The notes below the pieces were generated by a model. It made no database searches, was not told where the DNA came from, and worked only from the letters and a program-made list of their open reading frames with translations. Below, one piece after another: positions 49,411 to 64,000 of a stretch of DNA of 64,000 nt. The position numbers and the translations under genes were made by a program. The stretch is from a phage: the NCBI GenBank assembly GCA_014435945.1, contig GCA_014435945.1_4088.1. The stretch is one strand, 5' to 3'. How positions within the stretch are numbered: position 1 is the first letter of the stretch; every line of letters starts with the position of its first letter.

Positions 49411-49448
49411 GTACTGAATTATTACTTTCACCTTAATTACAATTACCC

Positions 49449-50029: not shown

Positions 50030-50225
50030 GACGGATTTTGGGCGTAGTTACCCTGGGTGGATTTTGGACGTAGATATGTCTAGCCCTCCAGAAGTCTGGA
50101 AGTAAAGATGGCTATCCATCTAGACGGCTAAACGGCTAGATTTCTAGATGGCTGTATGGCTAGACGTTTGGACGGCTAAACGGCTAGATGGTTACACGTC
50201 TGGATGTATAGACGGCTAAATCAAA
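50030..50225. repeat. iteron-like direct repeats: GACGGCTAAACGGCTAGAT twice (50123-50141, 50171-50189), partial copy at 50211, and GGATTTTGG(G/A)CGTAG twice
   Basis: Read directly. Confidence 0.6.
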
Positions 50226-50916
50226 ATTTTTATTTTGTTTTTTCCAATAGTTCCCCTACCGCGTGGGGATAGTTTCCCCGCAGTATCTGGAGTTAGATTT
50301 TTCTGAATCTGGAATCATTATCCCCGTTTTAGCCTGGTATGTCAACCGCCTGGATGAATATTTTTAAAAAATAATCTAGTACTGAATTTTGGGCGTAACT
50401 ATGCACCCGGTGGGCTTGAGTCTTTCTCGACTTGATGGAACTATTATACAGTACTGGAAAAATAAAGCAATACCCTGGAAGCAAAAAAGTTTTAATTAAT
50501 TTGCTTGCTATCCTGGGCCGGACTATGGTACTATATTTCAGTACTGAGAAAGTGCGTTTACCTGCTAGGGTGCGGGAGTGTATCCTTTTTAAATTTACTG
50601 AATTTTGGGCGTAATTCCGCACCCCCAGGGGTATCCGCTTTCTCGCGTCTATGTAGTAATTATACGCTTTTTCGGTGCTGAGTCAATAGCTAAAAACAAA
50701 ATAATTGAAAATAATTTAACGCGTTTAAACGGCCCGTAAAGCCCTGGTTAGCTGGTGGCGGTGCAAATGTATAGCTTAGGTGTATTAATGCGTTAGAATG
50801 CGATTGAGGACGTTTTACGGGGTATAGTACTGATTCAGTACTGAAAGATTGTTCTCCCTGGATTGTTCCAGTACTCCTATATAGAAAGAAAACTATTTTA
50901 AAAGTATTTGTAGAAA

Positions 50917-50950
50917 GTACTTGCAAAGTATTGGGAAAGGTGTAGAATGT
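50917..50950 (+). promoter_or_regulatory. sigma70-like promoter (TTGCAA-N16-TAGAAT) followed by leader hairpin
   Basis: Seen directly. Confidence 0.5.
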
Positions 50951-51005
50951 TTTACATCGAGACGGGGGATACGCTCCCGACTCACTTTTAAAAGAGATTA
51001 AAACG

Positions 51006-51368
51006 ATGGCGACTCAAATCAATACTATCATGCTTAACCTGGTTTCTTTCCGTGAAGAGATGAAAGATCTTCCCGCTGAGACTGTACGGATTCACATTGC
51101 AGCTTATCGGGAATTGATTGCAATGCTGCCGCTTAAGCGTGAACAGTACGCCGCTACTGCAATGCTGGACGCAATGATACATAAGATGATCCAGACTGAT
51201 TTAACGATGGCTTATCAGTACATGGGCGAAATGTTTGCAGTGTATAGCAAGCCAGTACCAGGAATGGAAAGTACAGAAGTATTACACGGCTTAAACTTAA
51301 AACAAGATGCATGGGATAATATGCCTCGTTTCCTGGTATGGGCTGATAGTGGAAAGATTTACGAATAA
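51006..51368 (+). CDS. hypothetical protein
   Basis: ORF track; promoter and hairpin upstream. Confidence 0.5.
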   Translation: MATQINTIMLNLVSFREEMKDLPAETVRIHIAAYRELIAMLPLKREQYAATAMLDAMIHKMIQTDLTMAYQYMGEMFAVYSKPVPGMESTEVLHGLNLKQDAWDNMPRFLVWADSGKIYE

Positions 51369-51375
51369 GTTTTTA

Positions 51376-51440
51376 AAAGTACTTGCAAAGTAAGTTTAAA
51401 GGCGTATAATACTTTACATCAGGTGGGGAATAGTTCCCCA
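51376..51440 (+). promoter_or_regulatory. right-region promoter unit: AGTACTTGCAA(-35)-N16-TATAAT then leader hairpin GTGGGGAA-tag-TTCCCCAC
   Basis: Same unit recurs before most genes from 51 to 64 kb. Confidence 0.6.
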
Positions 51441-51461
51441 CTATATAAGAGGATTAAAAAA

Positions 51462-51701
51462 ATGGCTAAATCAAAAATGTTCTTAGGTCACAAAAACAAA
51501 ACTCAATGGAATGTAAGCCTTTGGATTAATAACGACGAATCATTATACCGGTTGGCCCAGGACTTTATTGCCGCTAACACTAATCGTAATGATGCGGCCC
51601 GTCATATGATGCTATTTTTAGAACAGACTGGACAAGATAAAACGCCGGACGGCTTTAAGTATAGCACTACTGCGATCCGTGCGGCGATGGTTGGAATGTA
51701 A
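51462..51701 (+). CDS. hypothetical protein; paralog of 53854..54093
   Basis: Shared GHKNKTQWNVSLWINN..ESLYRLAQ...TPDGFKYSTTAIRAAMVGM. Confidence 0.55.
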   Translation: MAKSKMFLGHKNKTQWNVSLWINNDESLYRLAQDFIAANTNRNDAARHMMLFLEQTGQDKTPDGFKYSTTAIRAAMVGM

Positions 51702-51784
51702 TAGAATATATTAAAAGTACTATTGCACGGTGATAGTACTTTATAATAGTGTTTTATTCATACACCAACGATAAGGGTAACAGC

Positions 51785-52051
51785 ATGAATATTATATATT
51801 TTGCGACGCGTGAACAAGCTCGGATCGCCGCACGCCAGGACGGGGCGACGTTTAAAGATATGGGCGTACAATCGGAACGTGGTAAACGTTGGGCCATTGT
51901 AAAGCGTAGTACCGCCAGATCATTACAGTACTGGTTAGCGGCCTTAAAAAGACCCGATAGTGTATCGCGACGAGTGGTAGAAATAAAGCTCGACCGAAAG
52001 GGCAACCGCGTGACCGTGTACCGTACTAAAAAGATTGCAGTACTTGAATAA
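51785..52051 (+). CDS. hypothetical basic protein
   Basis: Internal ATG with AAGGG SD. Confidence 0.45.
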   Translation: MNIIYFATREQARIAARQDGATFKDMGVQSERGKRWAIVKRSTARSLQYWLAALKRPDSVSRRVVEIKLDRKGNRVTVYRTKKIAVLE

Positions 52052-52138
52052 AAAGTACTTGCAAACTAAGTTTAAAAGCGTATAATGTTTTACATCGAGA
52101 GCGGGAATAGTTCCCGCCTATAACCTGGAGTAATAAAA

Positions 52139-52369
52139 ATGACTAATATGTATATGACTGAAGTTAAAACCGTAAAAGATACTACCACTAATAAAACTAC
52201 TTACTTACAGCGGATCTGTGGTGTATGGCAACGTATCAGAAAATCAAAGTACTTTAAATTAACATCATATGCAAACCGTTCGGATTCATTCAGTACTGAA
52301 ATAAAAGGTAATAAAGTACACCAATACGGCACTTATTATTATTATAGCCTGGACGCGATTGCAGTATAA
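52139..52369 (+). CDS. hypothetical protein
   Basis: ORF track; promoter unit at about 52061. Confidence 0.45.
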   Translation: MTNMYMTEVKTVKDTTTNKTTYLQRICGVWQRIRKSKYFKLTSYANRSDSFSTEIKGNKVHQYGTYYYYSLDAIAV

Positions 52370-52639
52370 GCAGTTTACAAATCTTTACAATTGCCAGTAT
52401 TGACTTATTTTGTCAGTACTGGCATAATGTATTCATTGGCAGATAAGCCGTAGCCCATAGGGTGCGGAAGTGTATCTATAGAAAAAGTAGTTTAGTACAG
52501 TTACAATTGTGCACCCGGTGGGTTAGCTGTTGTCATGGGGTATATTATACCAGTACTGGATAGTGCTGTCAATACTTTTTTTACTATTCAGTACTGAAAA
52601 ACTATTTGATAAAAAGTACTTGCAAACTATGTTTAAAGG

Positions 52640-52735
52640 CGTATAATGTTTTACATCAGGACGGGGAACGAAATAAGTAACTTCCCGTTAAGTAGCCCAG
52701 GAGTAAGGCACACGAAAAACTCCCCTGATAAAATA
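52640..52735 (+). ncRNA. candidate structured RNA element between tandem promoters (copy 1)
   Basis: About 90-nt segment nearly identical to 63797-63885; compensatory change in ACGGGG/CCCCGT stem. Confidence 0.35.
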
Positions 52736-52797
52736 GTTTGACAATTGTTTTTAAAAGCGTATAATACTTACATAAACTACTGAATGAGGGTTACAAA

Positions 52798-53409
52798 ATG
52801 AAAACTATCACTACTACTACTTATGTTATGGATTTTTCTGAATTGAACGCAGAACAAAAAACGTCAGCTATCGAACTAGTTCGGGAACGTGAAAAAAACT
52901 CAAACGACGATTATTTTTCTGAAAGTGAAATTGAACACTATAAAGAAACAGTATTGCCGGAATATGGCATTAATGACGCTGAAATACAATTCAGTGGTTT
53001 TTGGTCCCAGGGTGACGGTGCATCAATCAGTACTGACCACGTTGACGCAGTGAAGTTTTTACGCAAGGTAAGAGCATTAACTAAGTATCGCTCAATCCGT
53101 CACCTGCTGAATGAAGATGATTTGGCGATGAGTGTAAAGCGTTCGCACTCCCACTACTCGCATGAGAATACTGTAAGCGGGTACATTGAATCGGCTTACA
53201 CTGATTTAACCGCAAAACAAGAAACGTTAGTTAATGAGCTTGAGGAACTACTCACTGACACTATTCGTGAATTATCCCGCAAGTTGTACCGTGATTTAGA
53301 GAATGCATATGAGGATCAATTCACTACTGAAAACATTACGGCACTGATTGAGGGTAACGAATATCAATTCAATGTTATTGATGGCGTAGTAGAATCAATC
53401 GAATATTAA
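52798..53409 (+). CDS. hypothetical acidic protein (203 aa)
   Basis: ORF track; SD GAGGG. Confidence 0.5.
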   Translation: MKTITTTTYVMDFSELNAEQKTSAIELVREREKNSNDDYFSESEIEHYKETVLPEYGINDAEIQFSGFWSQGDGASISTDHVDAVKFLRKVRALTKYRSIRHLLNEDDLAMSVKRSHSHYSHENTVSGYIESAYTDLTAKQETLVNELEELLTDTIRELSRKLYRDLENAYEDQFTTENITALIEGNEYQFNVIDGVVESIEY

Positions 53410-53502
53410 TTTAAAAAGTACTTGCAAACTAAGTTTAAAGGCGTATAATACTTTATATCGAGGCGGGGAGTGGTTCCCCGCTCATACTAAAAGGGTAACA
53501 AA

Positions 53503-53769
53503 ATGAAAACTTTAAATATCACAACTGCACATCAATTGGTTCGGGATGCGATGGATCATGTGCAAGATTTCTTCCCTGATGTAAGTGTAGTGACTTATGA
53601 AAAAGGTACTTGGACTTATTCAACAATTAACGGTTATGAGCCTGATTTTGATGATCTGGAAGAAATGGAATTTAATTTTGATCTGCTGAATGATGCCGCC
53701 CGTGAAGTGGGAAACGATGTTCAATACATTGATGGAGTAGTCGCACCTGATGCCGTAAAAGGATTATAA
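53503..53769 (+). CDS. hypothetical acidic protein
   Basis: ORF track; promoter unit upstream. Confidence 0.5.
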   Translation: MKTLNITTAHQLVRDAMDHVQDFFPDVSVVTYEKGTWTYSTINGYEPDFDDLEEMEFNFDLLNDAAREVGNDVQYIDGVVAPDAVKGL

Positions 53770-53853
53770 AAGTACTTGCAAACTAAGTTTAAAGGCGTAT
53801 AATACTTTATATCGAGGCGGGGAGTGGTTCCCCGCTCAAACGAGGATTAAAAA

Positions 53854-54093
53854 ATGGCTAGTACTAAAACTTACAACGGGCACAAAAACAAAACTCATTG
53901 GAATGTTTCCTTATGGATTAATAACGGTGAGTCATTGTATCGGCTTGCTCAAAGTTGCATCGCACAAAGTAGAACTAAAGATATTGCTGCGGAATGTATG
54001 TACCGCAGATTAAAAGCCAACGGTACTACTACAACGCCGGACGGATTCAAGTATAGCACTACGGCGATCCGTGCTGCAATGGTTGGAATGTAA
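53854..54093 (+). CDS. hypothetical protein; paralog of 51462..51701
   Basis: Shared motifs; identical promoter unit. Confidence 0.55.
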   Translation: MASTKTYNGHKNKTHWNVSLWINNGESLYRLAQSCIAQSRTKDIAAECMYRRLKANGTTTTPDGFKYSTTAIRAAMVGM

Positions 54094-54151
54094 TATTCAG
54101 TACTGTAACAATGGCGGGGAATGGTTCCCGCCTTTATTGAGGGTTTATCTA

Positions 54152-54412
54152 ATGAGTAAAGTAATTAACTATACAGTACTAAGCAAGTCATTATCTATTA
54201 GCCAGTGCACCGATGGTTATTGGTTTTATGATGAAACGCGTGGAATGAATTTAGCTATGCGTGCAAAAACTGCTGAGGCGGCGTATCTTGAGGCACTGGA
54301 ATACTACCAGGAACGTTTAACGGAAGTAGAAGAAGATTATAAAAGCCTCAAAGCGAAAGTAGATCATTTCGTCGGTCAATTCATCGAGGAAGACGCCGAC
54401 AAACAATATTGA
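54152..54412 (+). CDS. hypothetical protein
   Basis: Internal ATG with GAGGG SD. Confidence 0.45.
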   Translation: MSKVINYTVLSKSLSISQCTDGYWFYDETRGMNLAMRAKTAEAAYLEALEYYQERLTEVEEDYKSLKAKVDHFVGQFIEEDADKQY

Positions 54413-54498
54413 AAAAGTACTTGCAATTAGTTTTCAGTACTGTATAATGGTTTACATCAAAGGGAGAAATGGTTCTCCCTGGTAATGAGGAAAATAAA

Positions 54499-54720
54499 AT
54501 GGCTAATATCACTACTCTTTCCCAACTGGAAGCACTGGTTAAATCTATGCGGGAACATGCCGACAAAATCGGCGTACAAGATCCAGCCGTTTGCTTCTGC
54601 GACGAATTGAATGATGATACCCTGGTAATAGCAGAAGTCCAGGACGTTTCTAACTATTCCTCGCGTTACACTGGCGGCGTAGCAAATAAAGGTGACTTCT
54701 GTTTATACCTTACAAAATAA
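54499..54720 (+). CDS. hypothetical protein
   Basis: ATG after SD GAGGA. Confidence 0.5.
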   Translation: MANITTLSQLEALVKSMREHADKIGVQDPAVCFCDELNDDTLVIAEVQDVSNYSSRYTGGVANKGDFCLYLTK

Positions 54721-54963
54721 CAACGCGGGGAGATAATAACTCCCCGTTACTTTTTCAGTACTGAATCATTTAATAGACGGATCTCGGCACCCGGTGGGTT
54801 AGTGACTGTTTCGTCTTGATGTAGTAATTATGCCAGTACTGGATGCACTTGTCAACAATTATTTTCCAAATACTTTTTATTAAAATACTTGCTATTAGTT
54901 TTTAAACGCGTATAATGTTTTGCATAGGGGGAGCGGTTCCCCTGGTAACTAAGGAATAAGAAA

Positions 54964-55200
54964 ATGGTCGAACAAATCAAATCAACGTCTTCGAATGTAA
55001 CGGGAACGGTAGCACACTTTACTAGTGATGAATCGCGGGGCGTTCCCTATTGTGCTGTACATGTAAACACTGAGGGTAACTACTGGTTTACGGTTTACGG
55101 ATCATATTCATTTGGACGGCCAGGGCATCAAAAAATTCTGGATAAAGTACAACCAACGGGTAAAAATATCACTGCCGAAATGTTTTATAAAAAATCATAA
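54964..55200 (+). CDS. hypothetical protein
   Basis: ORF track. Confidence 0.5.
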   Translation: MVEQIKSTSSNVTGTVAHFTSDESRGVPYCAVHVNTEGNYWFTVYGSYSFGRPGHQKILDKVQPTGKNITAEMFYKKS

Positions 55201-55284
55201 AGTACTTGCAATTAGTTTTTAGTACTGTATAATATTTTACATCGCAAGGGGAAACGGTTTCCCCTGGTAACTAAGGATAATCAA

Positions 55285-55584
55285 ATGAAAGTAGCAATCA
55301 TCGCCCTGGCTTTATCTGTTTCCTCTTTCGCTGTTAATGCGTCGTTAGATGTACCTGGTGATAAATTCATTCAGTGCACCGTAGCAATGACAGATGAAAG
55401 TACTGGCGAGATTGTATTAAAGGATTTAGAGATCCAGCCGGAAGCATTTAAAAACGGCCCGTTCCATGAAGAAGACGAAAACGGTAGCACAACAATTTAT
55501 TATGATGCCAGTACTAAACGTGGTTCTGTCACTGTAATGGATACGGAGAAAGTAACTCACACCGGAGTAATTAACTGTTTATAA
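55285..55584 (+). CDS. secreted protein (signal peptide)
   Basis: N-terminus MKVAIIALALSVSSFAVNA. Confidence 0.55.
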   Translation: MKVAIIALALSVSSFAVNASLDVPGDKFIQCTVAMTDESTGEIVLKDLEIQPEAFKNGPFHEEDENGSTTIYYDASTKRGSVTVMDTEKVTHTGVINCL

Positions 55585-55666
55585 TAGTTTGACTATGTAT
55601 TACAGTACTGTATAATAGATACATAAGGGGCGAATAGTTTGCCCCTGGCATAAAGGGGAAAACATT

Positions 55667-55897
55667 ATGACAGCACGAATTGTTTTACTTAACGCTGGAA
55701 GTACTACACAACTCCTTAACGCCGTGCATTATGATATTGAAACGAGCGTTAATCTTATCAGTACTGTAGTACTATTGGACACTGGAAAGGTCGCCAATGA
55801 TAAAGCGATTGCAGGTATACTAACTGATCTCAAGCCTGGTAGCAGTACGCCAATAACGTTAAATGGCAAAGTGTTTAATATTTTACTTACTGATTAA
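55667..55897 (+). CDS. hypothetical protein
   Basis: ORF track. Confidence 0.45.
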   Translation: MTARIVLLNAGSTTQLLNAVHYDIETSVNLISTVVLLDTGKVANDKAIAGILTDLKPGSSTPITLNGKVFNILLTD

Positions 55898-55903
55898 GTA
55901 CAT

Positions 55904-55926
55904 AGCCCACCTGGTGGGCTTTTTTG
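55904..55926 (+). terminator. intrinsic terminator AGCCCAC-ctg-GTGGGCT plus T5
   Basis: Inverted repeat and T-run. Confidence 0.65.
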
Positions 55927-55994
55927 TTTTTGTAGTATCGTAGTACTGAGATACTTTAAAAATAGTTTTAAAAAAGTAGTTGACATTACCACAA

Positions 55995-56085
55995 AAAGGC
56001 GTAGAATGTATTACATCAAGACGGGGAGCACTAAGTAGACCGCCAGTAAGTCGAACGAAAAACTGGACACGTCGAGAAAACTTTG
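55995..56085 (+). ncRNA. candidate structured RNA element, divergent copy
   Basis: Shares acgggga...aagtag.cc..cagtaag..acgaaaaact with 52640 and 63797. Confidence 0.25.
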
Positions 56086-56130
56086 ATACACTAATAAACG
56101 TAAACTAAACTTTAATTGAGGATTTATAAA

Positions 56131-56613
56131 ATGGCTAATGTAAAATCATTCATCAAAGCACTGGTAGCAAATGAAACTAACGTCGCGGCAGAGATCCTGG
56201 CTGAACTGGATAACGATACCATGAAAGCGGTACGCAATAATTTTAACATCGCGTACAGTACTGCGAAAGAACTACAAGCAAATAAAGCGGCAGAAATTGA
56301 AGCGGCAAAGGCGGCCCGTGAAGCAGAACTACAAGCAACAATCGAAAGTATTCAGGCGGCAGTAGTTGGATTGGATCTGGAAGTAGTTACAGAGATGGCA
56401 CAAAAAGCCCTGGCGGTTAAGTATGGGGAAGACAAGCCAGAAGTAAAAGCCAAAAAATGGATTCAGGAACGCGTAGCGGTAGTACTGGACAACGGGGAAG
56501 AATATCTGATTCCGGTGCGTGGTAACTGCATTGCGGTAGTACTGGATGCGATTAACTCCAGTGGTATGACTCGCGAGGAATGGATCGAAGCTCATCGCAA
56601 AGTTGAAGCATAA
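56131..56613 (+). CDS. hypothetical Ala/Glu-rich protein
   Basis: ATG after SD GAGGA; track start 56116 is TTG. Confidence 0.5.
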   Translation: MANVKSFIKALVANETNVAAEILAELDNDTMKAVRNNFNIAYSTAKELQANKAAEIEAAKAAREAELQATIESIQAAVVGLDLEVVTEMAQKALAVKYGEDKPEVKAKKWIQERVAVVLDNGEEYLIPVRGNCIAVVLDAINSSGMTREEWIEAHRKVEA

Positions 56614-56634
56614 CAATTAAAGTACTGAATCACT

Positions 56635-56662
56635 AGCCCACCTTAAACGGTGGGCTTTTTTG
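56635..56662 (+). terminator. intrinsic terminator AGCCCACC..GGTGGGCT plus T6
   Basis: Inverted repeat and T-run. Confidence 0.65.
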
Positions 56663-56898
56663 TGTTTATCGTTTACCAGCTCCACATCACCGCCTAGAAA
56701 CGATTCTAACGCATTAAACTGATTATCTGATGCATTGCCCTAGCTGGTGGCGTTAAGGTCGTTGTAATGCGATTGAGAGCGTTTAAAGTATTTTGCAAAA
56801 AGTAATAAAAAGTACTTGCACGATTAAGAGATTAGCGTATAATGTTTTACATCGAGAGGGGGAAACGGTTCTCCTTCCAAATCAAAGGAATAAAAACA

Positions 56899-57126
56899 AT
56901 GGCTATTATCATTACTCGCGTATCTGGTACTACTGGCAACGAACAAGTAGTTGCAGTCATTACCAACAAGGAAGGTGCGGAATTGCAAAATGCAATGAAT
57001 ACCTGGGCCGTTAATGAGTTCGGTCAGTGGGCAAGTGTAGCATACATTGAAACCTATCAAGTGCCGTCGATTAGTTTAACTGATTTGGGCGTTGAGCGTA
57101 TCCTTTGCCTGGATGAATTAAATTAA
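56899..57126 (+). CDS. hypothetical protein
   Basis: ATG after SD AAGGAA. Confidence 0.5.
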   Translation: MAIIITRVSGTTGNEQVVAVITNKEGAELQNAMNTWAVNEFGQWASVAYIETYQVPSISLTDLGVERILCLDELN

Positions 57127-57212
57127 AAAAAGTACTTGCAAAGTAAATCGAATAAAGTATAATACATTACATCAAGGGGAGAAATGGTTCTCCCCACTAC
57201 AAGGAAACTAAA

Positions 57213-57356
57213 ATGAAAACTTGTCAATGTGGTCAGAAATCTATTACGGGTTTAAAGCGGGGCGTTGCTCTTTGCCAGTACCATTATAATTTACAAGTAT
57301 GGGGTAAAGAATGGGCCGACCAGGTGGAAGCAGCAAAGAAAGCAAAAAGTAAGTAA
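57213..57356 (+). CDS. putative 47-aa Cys-containing basic protein (MKTCQCGQKS...KAKSK)
   Basis: Read manually; promoter, hairpin and SD upstream. Confidence 0.4.
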   Translation: MKTCQCGQKSITGLKRGVALCQYHYNLQVWGKEWADQVEAAKKAKSK

Positions 57357-57435
57357 AAATATTATCACAGTACTATTGACATAGTTTGATAGTACTGGCA
57401 TAATAGATTTTATCAAGACAACTGAGGAAAATAAA

Positions 57436-57648
57436 ATGGCTATCATCACTAAAATCAAAGTTAACAAATCACTGGTTAAGCTGGAAGAAGTGAAAGAAGG
57501 TTATAAAGTATCTTGGTGCGGCATGTATCGGATATTCACTGATATTGATGACGCAATCAATTATTACAGCGACACGGTTAAAAACTTTGTTCGTGCTGAT
57601 GTGGTTATGGCAGTGGCAACGCACAAAGCAGCGAAAGAAAGTAAGTAA
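57436..57648 (+). CDS. hypothetical protein
   Basis: ORF track; same 3' end and downstream promoter as 57213..57356. Confidence 0.5.
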   Translation: MAIITKIKVNKSLVKLEEVKEGYKVSWCGMYRIFTDIDDAINYYSDTVKNFVRADVVMAVATHKAAKESK

Positions 57649-57737
57649 AAATATTATCACAGTACTATTGACATAGTTTGATAGTACTGGCATAATAGAT
57701 TTTATCAAGACAACATATTAATTTAAGGAATACAAAA

Positions 57738-58061
57738 ATGGCTAAAACTATCATTAACACCGTTTCCCTGGCTGCAATCCGTGCAATCAATGTTGACGGT
57801 AAACGTTGGACTGATTCATATGGCAATACTTATCATTCTTGTCATGTAAGCGTTGAACTGGATAACGGTTTGAATGATCTGGCGGTTGAATCATTTACTT
57901 ATGGCTATGAAGATGCATATCAACAAACGGCGTTATCTCTCTTAAAGGAATCAGTAGACGGGCTTAATACTGATGAAACCTCCCTTACTCGTGTGTGCAA
58001 TGATCTTAATATCCCGTTGCATTGTACTGTACAGAATGTTAAACGCAAAAAAGATCTTTAA
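57738..58061 (+). CDS. hypothetical protein
   Basis: ORF track. Confidence 0.5.
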   Translation: MAKTIINTVSLAAIRAINVDGKRWTDSYGNTYHSCHVSVELDNGLNDLAVESFTYGYEDAYQQTALSLLKESVDGLNTDETSLTRVCNDLNIPLHCTVQNVKRKKDL

Positions 58062-58141
58062 TTAGCTTTACTTTATGCAGATACTTTGATATAGTGTCTG
58101 CATAGGGGAAAGAAATTAAATTAACTTAAGAGGATCGTATA

Positions 58142-58411
58142 ATGAAAAATATCAGTACTTTAATCGATGCAGGTACTCATGTTCGTCGGTCTATGGTTGC
58201 AACCAGTACTACAAAACAAGTAGCGAGCGGTTATCTTGTATTTGTGCACGATGGTAAACTCCTGGAACGTTCAATCAATTTTGATGTTAAAAACAATTGC
58301 CGTTTTATTATCTTTAAGCGTGAGCAATATAAAATTGATTTACCAGCAAAGCCCATTAGTGGGGCGTACAACGTGCAATCATTGTTTGAACGTCAACCAT
58401 ACACCTATTAA
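58142..58411 (+). CDS. hypothetical protein
   Basis: ORF track; SD GAGGA. Confidence 0.5.
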   Translation: MKNISTLIDAGTHVRRSMVATSTTKQVASGYLVFVHDGKLLERSINFDVKNNCRFIIFKREQYKIDLPAKPISGAYNVQSLFERQPYTY

Positions 58412-58462
58412 TCAAAACATCGTTAGCGGTCGATTCAGGCCGCTTATATTGGGGATTATACC

Positions 58463-58735
58463 ATGAACGTTAATCAAGTACTGAATGAGATCGAAAGCAT
58501 CATTAAACCGATGAAGCGTACTGATGCTATGTTAACACCGGAAGAATGCCGCCTTTATGAGCGTTACAGCGTCGAACAAGTCCAGGCAATGGCTATGGCT
58601 ACCCCAGCCGTTAAACCGCCTGAGAATGCGTTACAGGACGTTACAGGGGATTATATCATCAATCCAGTACTAGGGAAGATGGCTGCAATCACCGAAGATC
58701 AACAAGACTACTTAAGCCAGTACTTAAAAGGTTAA
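58463..58735 (+). CDS. hypothetical protein
   Basis: ORF track. Confidence 0.5.
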   Translation: MNVNQVLNEIESIIKPMKRTDAMLTPEECRLYERYSVEQVQAMAMATPAVKPPENALQDVTGDYIINPVLGKMAAITEDQQDYLSQYLKG

Positions 58736-58740
58736 TTAAT

Positions 58741-58950
58741 ATGCTTACTGTACAGGATAAGATCGACATCTTAAAGGTTAATATGTATGTGATTGATGCC
58801 GTACCTGGTAAAGTATTTGCATACGATGACACTACTGTAAGCGATTTCTACTATAGCCAGGCCGTGGGGGATCTTTCTGTACAGTCGGTTATTGAAAACG
58901 TAGTTAATGCAGCGTATGAGCATTTACTTTCAAATAGTACTTGCAATTAG
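58741..58950 (+). CDS. hypothetical protein
   Basis: ORF track. Confidence 0.45.
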   Translation: MLTVQDKIDILKVNMYVIDAVPGKVFAYDDTTVSDFYYSQAVGDLSVQSVIENVVNAAYEHLLSNSTCN

Positions 58951-59019
58951 TTTTTAAACGCGTATAATGTTTTACATGAAGGGGAGAAATGATTCTCCCC
59001 ACTAATTAAGGAATATGAA

Positions 59020-59166
59020 ATGAAAGCATCAAAAAAGAGTACTAACAAGAAAGCACGTTCAACCTTAGATGGGGTATTCCCTTTACGTTTTGTTGATGAA
59101 GTAGTTTCCTACCCGCCGGGCCTTACTCCTGAGATGGTAGAAAGTTTGCGTAAATCTAAAAAATAG
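59020..59166 (+). CDS. putative 48-aa basic protein (MKASKKSTNKKARS...)
   Basis: Read manually; promoter, hairpin and SD AAGGAA upstream. Confidence 0.4.
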   Translation: MKASKKSTNKKARSTLDGVFPLRFVDEVVSYPPGLTPEMVESLRKSKK

Positions 59167-59248
59167 TACTTGCAATTAGTTTTTAGTACTGTATAATAGT
59201 TTACATGAAGGGGAAAACGTTCCCCTTACACCTAACGAGGAAAGTATA

Positions 59249-59500
59249 ATGGAAACAATTTTAATCAAAGACACTGCTACTACTGTAACTTATGATAATG
59301 ATTGCATTATCCCAGGGACTGAGTACGGCGAACGTGTACCCGTTCAAGTAGAGATTGATACCACATACATCGACAAGGCTGACCAGTGTATCACTATTGT
59401 AATTGGTGAATATCGTTTTCTACCAGAAGAGATCCAAAAATGGCAGAATATGATTGACCGTGCGAAATTAGTCGCACAAAGTTTAAAATACAAAGTTTAA
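59249..59500 (+). CDS. hypothetical protein
   Basis: ORF track. Confidence 0.5.
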   Translation: METILIKDTATTVTYDNDCIIPGTEYGERVPVQVEIDTTYIDKADQCITIVIGEYRFLPEEIQKWQNMIDRAKLVAQSLKYKV

Positions 59501-59586
59501 AATAATACTTGCAATTAGTTTTTAAACGCGTATAATGTTTTACATGAAGGGGAGAAATGATTCTCCCCAATAACAGGAGAAACAAA

Positions 59587-59739
59587 ATGAAACAATACAA
59601 CGCTCGGTTTGATGTTACTATCGGTAACGGCAAAGGTCAATTCTCTTTCAGTACTCGCAAAAGTTATACAGAAAACTTCCTGCGTAATTGTGCACTGACC
59701 GCCGCACAAATTAAACATTACTTTCAGGCTAAAAAATGA
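59587..59739 (+). CDS. putative 50-aa protein
   Basis: ATG after SD AGGAGA. Confidence 0.4.
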   Translation: MKQYNARFDVTIGNGKGQFSFSTRKSYTENFLRNCALTAAQIKHYFQAKK

Positions 59740-59825
59740 AATCATTAGCTTATTACAGTTCGGCCCTGGTCGGTGCATTGATCGCGGCATTGTTAGTAAC
59801 CTATCTATTCTTTATGGTGATTTAA
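59736..59825 (+). CDS. putative 29-aa single-TM peptide (MKSLAYYSSALVGALIAALLVTYLFFMVI)
   Basis: Read manually; ATGA overlap with upstream stop. Confidence 0.3.
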   Translation: MKSLAYYSSALVGALIAALLVTYLFFMVI

Positions 59826-59969
59826 ATGAATCCAACAGGCTTAAATTATAAAAGTTGTTCGGCGTTTACGAAAGCAAATAAAGCGAATGCACGTAAAGCG
59901 AAAGTACAGGAATACATCAAGCAAGGCATGACGCGAAAGGCGGCGATTCTAAAAGCTAAAAATAAATGA
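59826..59969 (+). CDS. putative 47-aa basic protein
   Basis: Read manually; directly follows previous stop. Confidence 0.35.
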   Translation: MNPTGLNYKSCSAFTKANKANARKAKVQEYIKQGMTRKAAILKAKNK

Positions 59970-59974
59970 AAAAA

Positions 59975-60010
59975 GTGGTTGACTCCGGTCAGCCATTTTG
60001 CTATTATATA
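59975..60010 (+). promoter_or_regulatory. PeSL-like terminator-promoter cassette
   Basis: gtggttgactccggtcagccattttgctattat. Confidence 0.6.
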
Positions 60011-60179
60011 TTCATTGAGAGATAGCTCACTAGCCCACAGGGTGCATAAGTGTATCTATTATATAAGTATTGAGTACTGAAAACTATTTTTAAAAAGTAC
60101 TTGCAAACTATCTCAATAAGCGTATAATGTTTTACATCGCAAGGGGAAATGGTTTCCCCTGGTAATAAGGAAACGAATC

Positions 60180-60521
60180 ATGACTATCTCAATTGCTCAA
60201 TCTAACTTTGAAAATGAAATCATCGCCCAGGCACTGCGTTTAAATGATGGTCGGGCCGAAATTAATTACGGTTTCAATTCAGGCGGTTGTGAAAAATATC
60301 AGTACTTTGTAACGGCTGATGGCGGTGTCCTGGGGATCAATACAGTTATTGTAAACATTCAGAAAATTAATTTCAATGATCCAGAAGATAGCCAGTTTTA
60401 CATCACGGGCGTGAACGTGAACTATGAGGATGATTATCTAACTGATGATCACACTGGCGAGAAGTTAGAAAGTGCATACGGTGAAGATGATTATCAGTCC
60501 GGTCCAGAAGATTTCGAATAA
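60180..60521 (+). CDS. hypothetical acidic protein
   Basis: ORF track. Confidence 0.5.
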   Translation: MTISIAQSNFENEIIAQALRLNDGRAEINYGFNSGGCEKYQYFVTADGGVLGINTVIVNIQKINFNDPEDSQFYITGVNVNYEDDYLTDDHTGEKLESAYGEDDYQSGPEDFE

Positions 60522-60616
60522 TATAAAAAATAGTTTGACAATAGATTATAGTACTGTATAATAGTTTACATCAAGGGGAGAGATGATTCTCCCCACTAAC
60601 AGAGAGAGAAAACAAA

Positions 60617-60799
60617 ATGGCTGAATTAATCGCTCGGAATACAATTGAAGGCATTGAAGATGTAACGTTGTCCTATGATTCAGATAAAAAAGTTTATGTT
60701 GTTCGTTATGGTTTGATTGGTGTTAACGTTGATTATATTGATGAAGCCTTTGAAAAATACTTTGAATTTATTAATATGGCTTATAATGATTATCGTTAA
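60617..60799 (+). CDS. hypothetical protein
   Basis: ORF track. Confidence 0.5.
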   Translation: MAELIARNTIEGIEDVTLSYDSDKKVYVVRYGLIGVNVDYIDEAFEKYFEFINMAYNDYR

Positions 60800-60889
60800 A
60801 AAATAGTTTGACAATAGTTTTAAGTACTGTATAATAGTTTTCATCAAGGGGAGAAAAACTTCTCCCCACTAACAGAGAGAGAAAGCAAA

Positions 60890-61102
60890 ATGGCTAATAT
60901 CTGCACTGTACTGAAAAATGCAAAACAAGTTTTATTTTCTGATCACGATCATTTAAACAAGGATATTACGGGCGTTCGGAATATCAAAGATGTAAAAAGT
61001 GTTATGGGTATCTATTGCAATATGAAACGTGTTGGTACGTTCGGCGACAAAGTACTATACCAGGCAGGGGATTATAACTTTACATTAACCATTATCAATT
61101 AA
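60890..61102 (+). CDS. hypothetical protein
   Basis: ORF track. Confidence 0.5.
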   Translation: MANICTVLKNAKQVLFSDHDHLNKDITGVRNIKDVKSVMGIYCNMKRVGTFGDKVLYQAGDYNFTLTIIN

Positions 61103-61192
61103 AATATATTACCAGTACTATTGACAACGTTTGATAGTACTGTATAATAAGTTTTATAAACAGTAGTTAACTTAACCTAAGAGAGAAACAAA

Positions 61193-61336
61193 ATGATCGC
61201 ACTGGATTCATTCATCGACGCAGTACTGGCAAAAACTGGCGAGGATCTGACCGCAGAACAATACGCGATGATCGAGCAATGTCAGCAAAACGGTAAATCG
61301 GTGAAAGATACTGTTAAGATTATCCGCAAGATGTAA
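61193..61336 (+). CDS. putative 47-aa protein (MIALDSFIDAVLAK...)
   Basis: Read manually; promoter at 61120-61150; SD GAGAGA; terminator follows. Confidence 0.4.
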   Translation: MIALDSFIDAVLAKTGEDLTAEQYAMIEQCQQNGKSVKDTVKIIRKM

Positions 61337-61342
61337 GATTAT

Positions 61343-61370
61343 AGCCCACTGGTTAACGCTGGTGGGCTTT
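61343..61370 (+). terminator. probable terminator hairpin AGCCCAC..GTGGGCT with short T tail
   Basis: Inverted repeat. Confidence 0.45.
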
Positions 61371-61441
61371 AATCATTTACCCTATACAATGCCAGTACTA
61401 AACCGTTTATCTCGTTAGAATGCGTTACAGGACGTTTAACA

Positions 61442-61639
61442 ATGATTAGCATGAAATCAGTACAAAAACAAATAGAAACATTATCAAAAATTAAACGTAA
61501 ACAATACTCCTTAGAATATACAATCAATGGTAACTATCATCTAATGAAAGAAAATAATTTTATAGTCATTGATGAATCATTGCAAATTATTAGTATAGTA
61601 CTGAAAGCATTAATCAATGACAGAAAAAAATTAAAATAA
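61442..61639 (+). CDS. hypothetical protein
   Basis: ORF track. Confidence 0.4.
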   Translation: MISMKSVQKQIETLSKIKRKQYSLEYTINGNYHLMKENNFIVIDESLQIISIVLKALINDRKKLK

Positions 61640-61968
61640 TCTATTGACAATATCCTCCAGTACTGGCATAATACTTACATCAAGACGAGAACGTCACTAA
61701 CCCATAGGGTGCACAAATGTAACTATATAATATCGATCAATAAATGATCAAAAAAGTACTGGATCAATTTAGCATAAGGAGTATAATTCTGATCAATTCT
61801 TGATCAAAGGCAATAAACGCAGTTGAATTTATATAGACAATACAAAGGCGTTACTATCCGTGGTAATGCTGGTGGATATGTAGTATCATATGGTTTGAAT
61901 AAGATAAACACTAGTAGTATTATTGTAGCATTACAGTACTATAGTATTTTTATAATGAGGTTAAAATA

Positions 61969-62226
61969 ATGGCTGTAGGATTTGCGAAGGACGGGGCCGA
62001 ACAAGACGAGATTAACGCAGTGATTCAGGCCGCTGTAAACCACGCTAGAAAGCAAATTAACGCACAAAGAGAATCACTGGTACATTGCCTCGACTGCGGC
62101 GATAAAATTCCTGAGAATCGACGCCAGGCCGTTATAGGGTGCATGTATTGTATTACTTGCCAGGAGGATCATGATAGTACTTTTAAAAGAGATCCGCGTA
62201 ATTGTTGGCATAGATCTATGAGATAA
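61969..62226 (+). CDS. TraR/DksA-family C4 zinc-finger protein
   Basis: CLDCGDKIPENRRQAVIGCMYCITCQ matches the CxxC-N17-CxxC DksA/TraR signature. Confidence 0.7.
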   Translation: MAVGFAKDGAEQDEINAVIQAAVNHARKQINAQRESLVHCLDCGDKIPENRRQAVIGCMYCITCQEDHDSTFKRDPRNCWHRSMR

Positions 62227-62290
62227 AAAGTAATTGACAGTACTGAAAGATAGTGTATAATGTTTTATATCTTAACTGAGGATAGAAATC

Positions 62291-62647
62291 ATGGGAATAC
62301 AACATATCACGCGTACTACTGACAATGGCGAGATCACTGGTTATCAAGTACAGGGCAAAGTAGCACAATTGCAGTACTGGTTTGTTAAACGTGGAATCAT
62401 TGCACCGGATCTTGATTATGACCGTGTAGCGTTTATTGATTCTCTTTATGTTGATCCTGATAGTCGGGGCAATGGTGAAGGTAACGAATTAATGAATGCC
62501 TTTATCGATGCCGCCGATGATTCAGATTGTATCATCTTAGAATGCGATACGGGAGAAGATAACGCCTTTAATCTTAAAGAATGGTACGAAGGTTTCGGAT
62601 TCGAGGTATTGATAGATAGTGAATATCCTATCATGATTTTATCATAG
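62291..62647 (+). CDS. possible small GNAT-like acetyltransferase
   Basis: Weak motif-A-like segment VDPDSRGNGEGNELMNAF. Confidence 0.35.
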   Translation: MGIQHITRTTDNGEITGYQVQGKVAQLQYWFVKRGIIAPDLDYDRVAFIDSLYVDPDSRGNGEGNELMNAFIDAADDSDCIILECDTGEDNAFNLKEWYEGFGFEVLIDSEYPIMILS

Positions 62648-62725
62648 TACTTGCATTTAGTTTTCAGTACTGTTATAGTACTTGCATCAAGGGGAAACAT
62701 CTTCCCCTACTAAGAGGAAATAAAA

Positions 62726-62914
62726 ATGGAAAACTTATCAAGTATTTTAGTACAAGATGATTTCGGTAATCCTGGAAGTGCTATCATTGTTCGGGGTAAT
62801 AAAGCAACGTTTGTTATTGCTGGTGGACCCGTACAGCGTAGCATTAAAAATAATGCTGTTACCATTAATAATGTACGCTATCGCTTAGATAAAGAATTAA
62901 TTCATAAACTGTAA
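62726..62914 (+). CDS. hypothetical protein
   Basis: ORF track. Confidence 0.5.
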   Translation: MENLSSILVQDDFGNPGSAIIVRGNKATFVIAGGPVQRSIKNNAVTINNVRYRLDKELIHKL

Positions 62915-62999
62915 AAAAGTACTGGACAATAGATTATAGTACTGTATAATAAGTTACATGAAGGGGAGAAATGATTCTCCCCACTAAGAGGAAAGAAAA

Positions 63000-63212
63000 A
63001 TGCAAGGTCAACTAATCGTTCGTAAATGGTCTGATACTAACGCTAAACCGTGGGATGTACAATACATCGCCCCCAATGGTGAATCACGTTATCAGCCAGG
63101 TGTAACGCATAGTACTGAGCAATTCGCCGCCGCTCACCGTGAACGCCTGTTACAATCAATGCAGCAAGGTTTCGGTGAAAAATTCATTCAGGATCATTGG
63201 CTGAAAGATTAA
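63000..63212 (+). CDS. hypothetical protein
   Basis: ORF track. Confidence 0.5.
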   Translation: MQGQLIVRKWSDTNAKPWDVQYIAPNGESRYQPGVTHSTEQFAAAHRERLLQSMQQGFGEKFIQDHWLKD

Positions 63213-63298
63213 AAAGTACTTGCACTGTACTGAATAAAGTGTATAATGTTTTATATCGGAAGGGGAATAGTTCCCCTCCGAACAAAGAGGAAAGTATA

Positions 63299-63472
63299 AT
63301 GGTCCAGGTAGAATTAACAGTACTGAAAGATCTGTTTTATCGGATTGGTACTACTGGCGAATATCCGAAGGGTGATAATGCAAAACTTTACGTATCACTC
63401 GACTTATGGCAACGCGAACAATTAGCAACGGCCTGGCGTAAAGGCAAAGCAGATAGCGAGGTGAAAGCATGA
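63299..63472 (+). CDS. hypothetical 57-aa protein
   Basis: ATG after SD AGAGGAAAG. Confidence 0.45.
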   Translation: MVQVELTVLKDLFYRIGTTGEYPKGDNAKLYVSLDLWQREQLATAWRKGKADSEVKA

Positions 63473-63618
63473 AAGAATTCTTATTTGAAGTAGTGTTTCA
63501 AGGTGTCGGTAGTAACCAACTGATTCGCTCAAGTGGTTATAATGTTAACCAGGCATGGAATAACATTAAACAAATGTACCCGAACGCTATCACATATCGC
63601 AACCCGAAAGAAGTTTAA
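63469..63618 (+). CDS. putative 49-aa protein
   Basis: Read manually; ATGA overlap with upstream stop. Confidence 0.35.
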   Translation: MKEFLFEVVFQGVGSNQLIRSSGYNVNQAWNNIKQMYPNAITYRNPKEV

Positions 63619-63634
63619 AAATAATTGAAAAAGG

Positions 63635-63668
63635 GATTGACTCCGGTCAGTCCCTTTGCTATTATATA
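63635..63668 (+). promoter_or_regulatory. PeSL-like terminator-promoter cassette
   Basis: gggattgactccggtcagtccctttgctattat. Confidence 0.6.
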
Positions 63669-63796
63669 CGCATAGAAACAAATCAGCCCACAGGGTGCAT
63701 AAATGTATCTATTGTTTGCTGGTGGCTAGTACTGAAAACTATTTTTAAAAAGTACTTGCATTGTACTTAGAATAAAGTATAATGTTTTACATCAGG

Positions 63797-63885
63797 ACGG
63801 GGAACGAAACAAGTAACCCCGTTAAGTAGTCCAGGAGTAAGACATACGAAAAACTCCCCTGATAAAATAGTTTGACAATAGAAAG
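63797..63885 (+). ncRNA. candidate structured RNA element between tandem promoters (copy 2)
   Basis: Near-identical to 52640-52735. Confidence 0.35.
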
Positions 63886-63931
63886 TAAAAGAGTATAATA
63901 CTTACATCAACCACTGATAAGGAAACATAAA

Positions 63932-64000
63932 ATGCGGATTCTACTGACAGCTAACGAAATCGAACAAGTACTGACTACTAACCTGGAAGACTGGAAACGT
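63932..64000 (+). CDS. hypothetical protein, 3'-truncated by window end
   Basis: ATG after SD AAGGAAA; open to the edge. Confidence 0.35.
   Translation, partial: MRILLTANEIEQVLTTNLEDWKR

Follow-up and report, generated by a model that had tools for sequence, protein, structure and literature searches.

Candidate very early small non-coding RNA units in the terminal repeat of RaK2/121Q-like jumbo phages

The 64-kb stretch of phage DNA analysed here (the window) is Asteriusvirus-like jumbo coliphage DNA, and it carries nine copies of a short repeat, each of which has its own promoter. Our best reading of these units is that they are small non-coding RNAs made very early, or promoter-proximal RNA modules, and form a family of their own that is new. 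In RaK2/121Q-like jumbo phages they are found in the early region of the terminal repeat and nowhere else, at ~10 per genome. Phages infecting at least eight enterobacterial genera have kept them, although the genes around them turn over. RaK2/121Q-like jumbo phages are under development for therapy. To our knowledge, their non-coding content is entirely uncharacterised, as are more than 80% of their genes.

Motif copies, genomic setting and distribution

An exact search of the window for RCCCANNGGGTGC returned seven matches, in both orientations, versus 0.06 expected from shuffled sequence (0 of 100 shuffles reached seven). A sequence-only reading of the same DNA had placed these copies correctly to within 0-6 nt but had given the motif a length of 16 bp, whereas it spans 13 nt. 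Two variant copies, at 50568 (+) (ACCTGCTAGGGTGC) and 50624 (-) (ACCCCTGGGGGTGC), had been overlooked because their stem or loop varies. The total is nine copies, all between 50.4 and 63.7 kb, with none in the window's other 50 kb (Table 1). A covariance model built from 68 family members and run on the window with filters off found exactly these nine (26-48 bits, E <= 1.6e-4); the next-best match scored 11 bits (E ~1).

The same reading had described two sequences trailing the motif. One, GTGTATCTAT, is indeed the conserved 3' part of the element (consensus GYRUCUAU). The other, TGTAGTAATTAT, belongs to minus-strand copies: it is their -10 box plus transcription start (TATAAT/CATAAT + TACTACA) written as the reverse complement, which places it upstream of the motif instead of downstream. 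In that reading, the copies' own promoters had been taken as unrelated or as trailing sequence.

Table 1. The nine units in the window, in order of position, with their promoters, covariance-model scores and predicted RNAs
Unit	Span	Strand	Exact RCCCANNGGGTGC match, or variant core	Promoter	Score (bits)	Predicted RNA	Remarks
A	50389..50470	-	50403-50415	TTGCTT-16-TATAAT, 50470..50443	31.8	start ~50436, end 50389; AUCAAGUCGAGAAAGACUCAAGCCCACCGGGUGCAUAGUUACGCCCAA	
C	50505..50587	+	variant, ACCU-GCUA-GGGUGC	weak, 50505-50534	27.4	~50542-50587	RNA converges on Unit B
B	50605..50686	-	variant, ACCCC-UG-GGGGUGC	TTGACT-16-TATAAT, 50686..50659	26.2	50652..50605	
D	52400..52479	+	52453-52465	TTGACT-17-TGgCATAAT, 52400-52428	46.3	52435-52479; AUUGGCAGAUAAGCCGUAGCCCAUAGGGUGCGGAAGUGUAUCUAU	
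E	52497..52572	-	52511-52523	TTGACA-17-TGgTATAAT, 52572..52544	35	52536..52497	short class, without 5' hairpin
F	54726..54855	-	54787-54799	TTGACA-17-TGgCATAAT, 54855..54827	38.2	54820..54773 (conserved RNA)	antisense to genes; RNA followed by bidirectional intrinsic terminator, 54746..54726
G	59972..60059	+	60033-60045	TTGACT-17-TGcTATTAT, 59979-60007	48.2	60014-60059	next gene's own promoter, 60101-60128
H	61644..61726	+	61700-61712	TTGACA-17-TGgCATAAT, 61644-61672	41.5	61679-61726	
I	63630..63712	+	63686-63698	TTGACT-17-TGcTATTAT, 63637-63665	41.7	63672-63712	short class; next gene's promoter, ~63750

Alignment to Asteriusvirus vB_Ec-M-J, which has a direct terminal repeat (DTR) annotated at 1-21,525, showed that window positions 49312..64000 are the counterpart of this repeat. 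The DTR starts at ~49,312 in the window, and all nine units (9/9) lie inside it. This region also holds many small early genes with strong host-type promoters, and the genes around the units are small ORFans. Strong promoters and a position in the terminal repeat beside early genes are an indirect sign that the units are among the first products of infection.

The family sample comprised 61-68 distinct copies from phages of Escherichia, Klebsiella, Cronobacter, Pectobacterium, Yersinia and Serratia. The element is conserved in RaK2-like phages of eight host genera. The intergenic placement noted earlier held when full genomes were counted: in the related, complete genome of ECO103 4-12-1 (351,992 bp), 10/10 copies were intergenic and fell within 302,363-321,167 (~19 kb), and in phage G17 10/10 lay between annotated CDSs. 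Among 185,579 bacterial and archaeal genomes searched, no copies were found beyond 6 chance matches. We found neither an annotation of the element nor a paper describing it.

Promoters, orientation and downstream context

A sigma-70 promoter was present 26-35 nt upstream on the same strand in 61/61 copies with distinct upstream sequence, compared with 8.4% of random positions. These promoters are of the near-consensus host type (TTGACw, a 17-bp spacer and often an extended TG -10). The predicted transcription start is the A of 'CAT', and the element stands at a fixed distance from it. Conservation is confined to the first 45-55 nt of the transcript, being strongest at ~+15 to +48, and paralogue similarity ends ~20 nt past GGGTGC. 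None of the window's nine copies has an ORF downstream.

The earlier placement of the copies between a gene end and the next promoter was half right, as each copy has a promoter of its own and about one third point against genes. Unpaired antisense copies typically meet a bidirectional terminator ~45 nt past the GGGTGC anchor; in Unit F, the predicted RNA including this terminator is ~95-100 nt. Units D and E are convergent, with anchors 56 nt apart, and the same 56-bp distance separates inverted pairs in several genera. Anchor-to-anchor spacing is 56-160 nt in clustered or convergent copies and about 1.6-5.2 kb elsewhere. The proposal that the pair at 52455/52511 forms a long inverted repeat was confirmed; its read-through RNA has a folding energy of -38 kcal/mol for the plus strand and -29 kcal/mol for the minus strand (z ~ -4 each). 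Downstream of co-directional copies, the next gene almost always has a separate promoter. Together with the antisense terminators and the convergent pairs, this indicates that the units do not require a gene after them. A conserved terminator or defined 3' end is absent across family copies, and Unit C is the only window copy with a U-tract after the second hairpin (terminator-like, 50567-50586).

This layout bears on the possibility that the element acts in cis on RNA polymerase, through put-like terminator read-through or as a programmed pause or loading site. A cis element acts on the polymerase that made it, so transcripts from the extra promoters would differ at early-region terminators. 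The fixed distance from the transcription start, the restriction of conservation to the first 45-55 nt and the lack of a terminator belonging to the element all agree with such a role, as do two alternative hairpins that share one G-rich strand (see below). Co-directional copies stand just past a terminator and head gene groups with further terminators. They are expected to read into the next gene, and in one case (L021_12623) the copy itself forms the 5' UTR, so that for this class acting in cis would be just as natural. The consensus elemental pause is G-11 G-10 ... Y-1 G+1. The matching pattern GG-N8-YG occurs in 39/66 copies, and U12 is conserved in 95%, but G+1 is found in only ~60%. Furthermore, about one third of copies oppose all genes and run into a strong terminator or a convergent partner, and nearly all downstream genes already have their own promoter. 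Known signals were likewise missing: the RfaH-type ops sequence (GGCGGTAG; 12-mer GGCGGTAGnnTG) had no match in the window, let alone near a unit, and neither did the lambda nut boxA (CGCTCTTA / TGCTCTTTAACAA), for which three boxA-core matches lie far from the units. We rank a cis-acting element second, after a trans-acting abundant RNA, and regard it as not very likely.

RNA architecture and strand-specific constraint

The conserved RNA of each unit is 40-48 nt long and consists of a 5' stem-loop (or only its A/G-rich loop sequence), a CUA linker and an invariant core. A 5' hairpin with an A-rich loop and no fewer than 20 different stems was found in ~38 of 53 distinct 5' segments, in 27 distinct stem combinations, and it covaries through compensatory GC->AU and CG->GC changes. 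A stem-loop of this type also occurs at the 5' end of early mRNAs of the same phage.

The core has two mutually exclusive folds, RCCC-AYA-GGGU and GGGUGCR-N4-UGYRYCY, which share the G-rich strand. GGGU(GC) pairs either leftward with RCCC (4 bp, AYA triloop) or rightward with GYRYCY (7 bp, tetraloop). The RCCC-GGGU helix is paired in 94% and shows two C:G->U:A double changes, while the helix of GGGU with the tail is paired in 88-90% of cells, versus 28-66% in slid controls. The core changes so little that two-sided covariation within it is minimal. What variation there is in the two folds is G-U/wobble-compatible on the transcribed strand only. Tail positions 14 and 15 are Y and R, respectively, in 64/64 copies, and adjacent positions show transversions. 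These patterns support RNA-level selection on the element.

Among the three roles that had been suggested for the motif, part of a small structured RNA is the one supported by the promoters, the 5' hairpin covariation and the wobble strand bias, whereas a DNA binding site for a regulator or nuclease leaves the strand-specific pattern unexplained. The same difficulty extends to any DNA-level element, be it a protein operator, an origin activated by transcription that combines a promoter with an AT-rich unwinding region, or a site specific to the terminal repeat that serves replication, packaging or the protection of ends. Confinement to the terminal repeat, the occurrence of both orientations and the fixed spacing of inverted pairs are in line with this idea, and so is the AT-rich DNA downstream of the element, where AGTAC(T) is present at 20-47 nt in 38/59 copies versus 19% expected. 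However, the motif is asymmetric and always co-oriented with its promoter, changes that G-U pairing tolerates would produce C-A mismatches in duplex DNA or on the opposite strand, and copies are spread over ~19 kb instead of clustering at the repeat boundary. We therefore consider a DNA-level element highly improbable.

Favoured reading and comparison with known systems

We favour the view that the units are very early, abundant small non-coding RNAs acting in trans as a decoy, sponge or regulator, although we hold it tentatively. Each copy would supply the invariant core of a small transcription unit that is complete in itself and driven by a host sigma-70 promoter, and that would be transcribed very early in infection. 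The 5' and 3' hairpins may stabilise a ~45-100-nt product, and the RNA would accumulate. A partner that is conserved either in Enterobacterales hosts or in the phage clade would recognise the core, and the RNA would exert its effect through this recognition. An unlikely but related scenario is a class of bistable promoter-proximal RNA devices in jumbo-phage terminal repeats, which would reprogramme or park host RNA polymerase without a phage protein, or serve as a multi-copy decoy neutralising a conserved enterobacterial factor in the first minutes. Conservation amid gene turnover may be the signature of an RNA-borne core function in host takeover or transcription control. If this is correct, the units would provide a new RNA family for Rfam annotation, precise start sites, mutational targets (GGGUGC, RCCC and the YRYCY tail) and a directly testable choice between a decoy and a polymerase-acting element.

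The units fell outside known RNA families. Rfam 15 gave no match at the gathering score in the whole window; at E <= 10 on 50-64 kb, nine weak matches appeared, none of which overlapped the conserved RNA of any unit. ARAGORN found no tRNA or tmRNA genes, and the best local match to E. coli ssrA was no better than that to shuffled ssrA. The anticodon stem of E. coli tRNA-Ile(GAU) is identical to the ACCC/GGGUG stem, but the rest of that tRNA does not match. An RNA anti-CRISPR mimicking type I-E or I-F repeats was not supported, as the covariance model had no match in the E. coli K-12 type I-E array (repeat CGGTTTATCCCCGCTGGCGCGGGGAACTC) and I-E/I-F repeat cores are absent from the window. ToxI-like type III antitoxin RNAs are tandem ~36-nt repeats beside a toxin gene, whereas the copies here are dispersed, each with its own promoter. 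A CsrA sponge was also discarded: GGA is found in the second-hairpin loop of only 3/9 window copies and about half of the family, and never in the 5' hairpin loop.

Several of these results count against the favoured trans-acting RNA as well, namely the limited occurrence of GGA and the lack of tmRNA similarity, together with the missing common 3' end and the scarcity of true two-sided core covariation. No partner or target was found: complementary sites to the element were not in excess in the phage genome, and rRNA complementarity was not significant.

In T4-type phages, PeSLs (promoter-early stem-loops) combine a terminator and a promoter in one cassette (Arbiol et al. 2010, PMC2839356; Comeau et al. 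2014, PMC4122927). The units resemble them in having a stem-loop just upstream of or overlapping a near-consensus sigma-70 promoter (TTGACA-N17-TATAAT), and in recurring many times in a plastic early region, where they separate small ORFan genes, with copy numbers that vary among close relatives; Unit H, for example, is present in phage 121Q and absent from G17 and ECO103. In Units G (59972-59999) and I (63630-63657), and in many RaK2-like copies, a terminator-like hairpin contains the -35 box, as in T4-type PeSLs (PMC4122927, PMC2839356). The units might thus be PeSL-type cassettes whose transcribed segment lacks RNA function, with the repeats kept in a hyperplastic early region as substrates for recombination, be it through the shuffling of genes or through concerted evolution. 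However, PeSLs as described in two papers comprise only a stem-loop and a promoter, with no conserved transcribed module reported (PMC2839356, PMC4122927), whereas the conserved part of the units is a 40-48-nt RNA module downstream of the promoter. A PeSL without such a module was ruled out by the location of the strongest conservation within the transcript. Many units, including A, B, F and H, have no such upstream stem-loop; moreover, a third oppose genes, and all lie in the terminal repeat. Phage genera whose flanks have diverged past recognition still share the 13-nt core and the Y/R-restricted tail, and recombination alone does not predict strand-specific, wobble-type constraints. We judge this explanation quite improbable.

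Phage PA5oct, a related jumbo phage, encodes ncRNA001 and ncRNA002 (236 and 451 nt) in its long terminal repeat, and they are strongly expressed, accounting for 2-5% of phage RNA-seq reads (PMC7318152). The units share with them a non-coding nature and a terminal-repeat location, but their 40-48-nt module is far from these lengths. Neither an nhmmer profile HMM nor the covariance model detected the motif in the PA5oct repeat or gave evidence of homology.

The put RNAs of HK022 are short, structured, cis-acting antitermination RNAs just downstream of strong early promoters, and need no ORF; there are two copies, each heading a long operon. Compared by description, the units are likewise stem-loop RNAs that would function through the 5' portion of the nascent transcript. 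Unlike put, they number ~10, are shorter and, in the short class, lack the first hairpin. An operon-head location is true of co-directional copies but false for the 22/58 that are antisense dead-end or convergent.

Finally, the units share with Hfq-type trans-acting sRNAs a promoter of their own, which is always present, a stem-loop at the 5' end and a conserved C-rich segment that is either single-stranded or alternately paired. The unpaired antisense class, such as Unit F, adds a GC-rich intrinsic terminator with a U tail ~45 nt on, for a total of ~95-100 nt, whereas co-directional and paired units have none and no target was identified. Base-pairing sRNAs seldom come in ~10 paralogous copies per genome, a number more typical of decoys or sponges.

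Motif copies and their promoters

The motif is real, highly non-random and strongly conserved. The sequence-only reading had described a 16-bp intergenic repeat between 50390 and 63715, and its motif was borne out: RCCCANNGGGTGC occurs seven times, versus 0.06 expected, and the positions were right within a few bases. Two variant copies, at 50568 (+; ACCU-GCUA-GGGUGC) and 50624 (-; ACCCC-UG-GGGGUGC), were added from a list of every GGGTGC site with its flanking sequence and a subsequent profile-HMM search. A covariance model trained on 68 family members returned exactly nine units (promoter plus conserved motif-bearing RNA; A-I) in the 64 kb, scoring 26-48 bits, and the next match reached 11 bits. 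The reported trailing sequence TGTAGTAATTAT turned out to be the opposite-strand reading of the -10 box and start in minus-strand units.

Coordinates of the units and of other repeated elements in the window
Feature	Position	Strand
Unit A	50389..50470	-
Unit B	50605..50686	-
Unit C	50505..50587	+
Unit D	52400..52479	+
Unit E	52497..52572	-
Unit F	54726..54855	-
Unit G	59972..60059	+
Unit H	61644..61726	+
Unit I	63630..63712	+
Chi GCTGGTGG	4537, 15036, 49902, 50751, 56743, 61358, 61868, 62819, 63718	+
Chi GCTGGTGG	49890	-
Second intergenic repeat	50793-50822, 56762-56790, 61410-61440	
TTTTGGGCGTA	50040, 50063, 50385, 50600	

A consensus scan placed a sigma-70 promoter upstream of each window copy, on the same strand. 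The typical unit promoter consists of TTGACA/T, a 17-bp spacer and then TGnTATAAT, TGnCATAAT or TGnTATTAT. When the count was restricted to the 61 family copies with distinct upstream sequence, TTGnnn-N16-18-NAnnnT ended 26-35 nt before GGGTGC in 61/61, versus 8.4% of positions drawn at random from the same loci; strict TTGACw-17 was present in 39 of the 61 and the extended TG in 41. Transcription is predicted to start at the A of the conserved CAT, and the conserved RNA spans 40-48 nt. The phage's early mRNAs (ACAUCGAG...) share this start context, as do classic strong phage promoters. No ORF with a ribosome-binding site was found after the units. We consider it highly likely that the motif is transcribed from its own promoter and is an element at the RNA level.

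Structure of the predicted RNA

The core consensus is CUA-RCCC-AYA-GGGUGC-RGARRU-GYRUCUAU. Its GGGU:RCCC helix is paired in 94% of cells, the R-U pairs being A-U or G-U, and shows two independent C:G->U:A double changes. An alternative helix, GGGUGCR:UGYRYCY, is paired in 88-90% of cells, versus 28-66% with the partner slid; in 64/64 copies the tail has Y at position 14 and R at position 15, with transversions at the neighbouring positions 13 and 16. The two helices are mutually exclusive and of similar stability (mean dG -3.2 and -4.2 kcal/mol). The G-rich strand hardly varies, so the core is supported by one-sided, wobble-compatible variation rather than classical covariation, and shuffle controls on the core helices agreed with this. 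Such variation makes sense only on the strand set by the promoter, a point in favour of RNA over duplex DNA. A site acting at the DNA level fits such strand-specific constraints poorly, and we regard it as very improbable.

Conservation among paralogues ends ~20 nt past GGGTGC; in orthologues, variability is highest over the 20 nt that come next. In several copies the 5' segment and 3' tail seemed promisingly complementary, but in a permutation test a unit's own tail did no better than the tails of other copies (p = 0.19), and a unit-specific closing stem was rejected. So was an intrinsic terminator or attenuator, as a U-tract after the second hairpin is limited to unit C and a few relatives, the family consensus there being AUWRUAUA. 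A small ORF within the unit was also rejected: in ~60% of copies the gap between an SD-like purine run and NUG is only 1-3 nt, and the variation lacks 3-nt periodicity. By inspection, we judged the units to be non-coding.

The 5' module of ~38 of 53 distinct 5' segments is a hairpin whose stem has 3-7 bp and whose A/G-rich loop has 6-8 nt (GAGAAA, GCGAAA, AGAUAA, AGAACAA). These hairpins have 27 different stem combinations, and RNAalifold detected GC->AU and CG->GC compensations in one subfamily. Short-class copies (e.g. units E and I) keep the A-rich stretch and lack the 5' stem. Since the same CAUCAAG-hairpin-ACUA layout is seen directly in the sequence at the head of the phage's early mRNAs, this is probably a generic 5'-end module.

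Genomic contexts and candidate roles

Co-directional units (e.g. D, G, H and I) often lie right after a terminator-like hairpin containing their -35 box, as in the promoter-early stem-loop (PeSL) cassettes of T4-type phages (PMC4122927). A PeSL-like cassette without RNA function is a poor fit to the strand-specific constraints, and we think it improbable. The next gene's own promoter follows co-directional units within 40-70 nt; in one relative (L021_12623), SD and ATG come directly after the unit. Antisense units (F and many relatives) enter the upstream gene's bidirectional terminator ~45 nt past the anchor, the GGGUGC of the core, with a predicted RNA of ~95-100 nt in a classic sRNA layout. 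In the convergent pairs C/B and D/E, and in pairs at at least four other loci, the anchors are 56 nt apart, and read-through RNAs would form an imperfect ~95-nt hairpin (-38 and -29 kcal/mol, z ~ -4).

The dead-end and paired copies, together with the separate promoters after co-directional copies, indicate that a unit needs no downstream gene. For this reason we tentatively favour a small RNA product acting as a decoy or sponge. It would be made from ~10 gene copies with consensus promoters, and a partner that is conserved among hosts or within the phage clade would recognise its invariant core. The main rival is an element acting in cis on RNA polymerase. In its favour are the constant spacing from the start, the bistable core, the absence of a terminator, and GG-N8-YG, which matches the consensus pause and is present in 39/66 copies. 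The antisense copies speak against it, and we consider it rather unlikely. The units had no matches to ops, boxA or the T7 class II signal.

Several candidate partners or relatives of a small RNA product were rejected. Outside the units, the phage genome contains complements of the core about as often as chance predicts, and with 16S, 23S and 5S rRNA the real and shuffled cores have the same duplex energies. A duplex with tRNA-Ile scored better only because the ACCC/GGGUG stem is shared. This core stem (e.g. 60031-60045) matches the anticodon stem of E. coli tRNA-Ile(GAU), GCGC-ACCC-CUGAUAA-GGGUG, with a loop of 3 nt rather than 7 and no other resemblance; the identity is probably a coincidence. 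The stem also resembles tRNA-Thr(GGU). A CRISPR-repeat mimic (no type I-E or I-F repeat at units), a type III antitoxin (units not tandem) and a CsrA sponge (GGA motifs too irregular) were likewise dismissed.

The terminal repeat, relatives and known systems

By megablast, 50.3-56 kb of the window matches Asteriusvirus jumbo phages of Escherichia (~350-385 kb; WPEC5, G17, Sharanji, PBECO4 and 121Q among them) at 90-96% identity, where overlapping annotations are solely 'hypothetical protein' or 'terminator'. In the vB_Ec-M-J record, 1-21,525 is labelled Direct Terminal Repeats, and alignment of this phage's first 2.5 kb put the left edge at window 49,312; the window from there to its end is therefore terminal-repeat DNA. 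From ~50.9 kb, the repeat holds densely packed + strand genes of 45-200 codons, nearly each with its own strong promoter. Almost every early gene at 50.9-64 kb (e.g. 51383-51450, 53422-53500, 57136-57215) carries one and the same cassette: AAAAGTACTTGCAA-N16-TATAAT and a start at ACAUCRAG are followed by a 5' hairpin of the GGGGA..UCCCC type, ACUA, a ribosome-binding site and ATG. The small RNA units have the 5' part of this cassette in common with the genes. A near-identical duplicate of a gene end and promoter (TTGACA-17-TGgCATAAT; 57340-57414 and 57632-57706) precedes two different small genes and is the source of two spurious sub-threshold mir-1000 Rfam matches.

A big non-coding region, 49,000-50,900, crosses the repeat boundary. 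It contains GGCTAAACGGCTAGA-type iterations (50,100-50,220), four copies of TTTTGGGCGTA and, at 50035-50065, a promoter-less degenerate relic of a unit in minus orientation, missed by the covariance model. Beside unit H, a small ORF (61969-62226, +) encodes a C4 zinc-finger motif (CLDCGDKIPENRR...CITCQ). From the PRK11019 domain annotated in its G17 homologue we read it as TraR/DksA-like, which would make it a candidate RNA-polymerase secondary-channel binder. Further upstream, 24,648-43,931 (-) holds 17 paralogous genes in tandem (~370-400 codons each); the annotation of their G17 homologues gives similarity to 'putative DNA condensation protein' and the conserved domain COG5184 (ATS1), which we take to be RCC1-like.

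Other short sequences were also over- or under-represented. AGTACT occurs 266 times in the window versus 21.7 expected (12-fold), most densely at 44-64 kb, and CAGTACTG 58 times versus 0.7. AGTACT lies in coding and non-coding DNA, very frequently in promoter spacers (CCAGTACTGGCATAAT), and AGTAC(T) falls 20-47 nt past the anchor in 38/59 unit copies versus 19% expected. This pattern suggests a putative recognition site of a phage DNA-binding or DNA-modifying protein. E. coli Chi is strongly enriched and strand-biased (9 on +, 1 on -; 0.2 expected per strand), seven + strand copies lying inside the terminal repeat, and also occurs in unit promoter spacers of RaK2-like relatives; it may protect DNA ends against RecBCD. 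The second intergenic repeat, (T)TAGAATGCGATTGAGGACGTTT(T/A)A, twice comes just after a Chi site. AGCGCT, AGGCCT, CAGCTG and CCATGG are absent from the whole window (~7 expected each), consistent with restriction-site avoidance.

Blastn of one unit against GenBank phages gave 68 records, all RaK2-like jumbo phages, with Escherichia, Klebsiella, Salmonella, Erwinia, Yersinia, Cronobacter, Pectobacterium and Serratia as hosts. The match region is unannotated in most, and otherwise called 'terminator', 'Direct Terminal Repeats' or 'redundant repeat'; those ~370-385-kb records that contain both repeat copies have double the number of sites. An exact-pattern scan of IMG/VR found the element in contigs that we take to be RaK2 (345,809 bp), GAP32 (358,663 bp), 121Q (348,532 bp), CBB (378,379 bp), Yersinia fHe-Yen9-04 (354,378 bp) and Serratia BF (357,154 bp), and in other ~350-kb contigs. 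The complete ECO103 4-12-1 genome (351,992 bp) has 10 units by regex, profile-HMM search and covariance model alike, all within 302,363-321,167 (5% of the genome), and in G17 10/10 units lie between annotated CDSs. A host or prophage origin was rejected: a pattern of 19 specified bases had just 6 matches in 185,579 bacterial and archaeal genomes, about the chance level (~4, estimated from pattern length and database size), all in unrelated metagenome-assembled genomes.

The units had no Rfam match and no significant similarity to tmRNA, and no tRNA or tmRNA was found. We found no description of the element in the literature on Asteriusvirus, PBECO4, 121Q, jumbo phage sRNA or PeSL. RNA-seq supports ncRNAs in the terminal repeat of PA5oct, a related Pseudomonas phage; the motif is absent from them, and no homology was found. 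The element is a new RNA motif family of RaK2-like jumbo phages, located in their terminal repeats and attached to PeSL-like early promoters: the promoter/terminator part of the units is similar to PeSLs, whereas the conserved transcribed module lies outside the PeSL definition.
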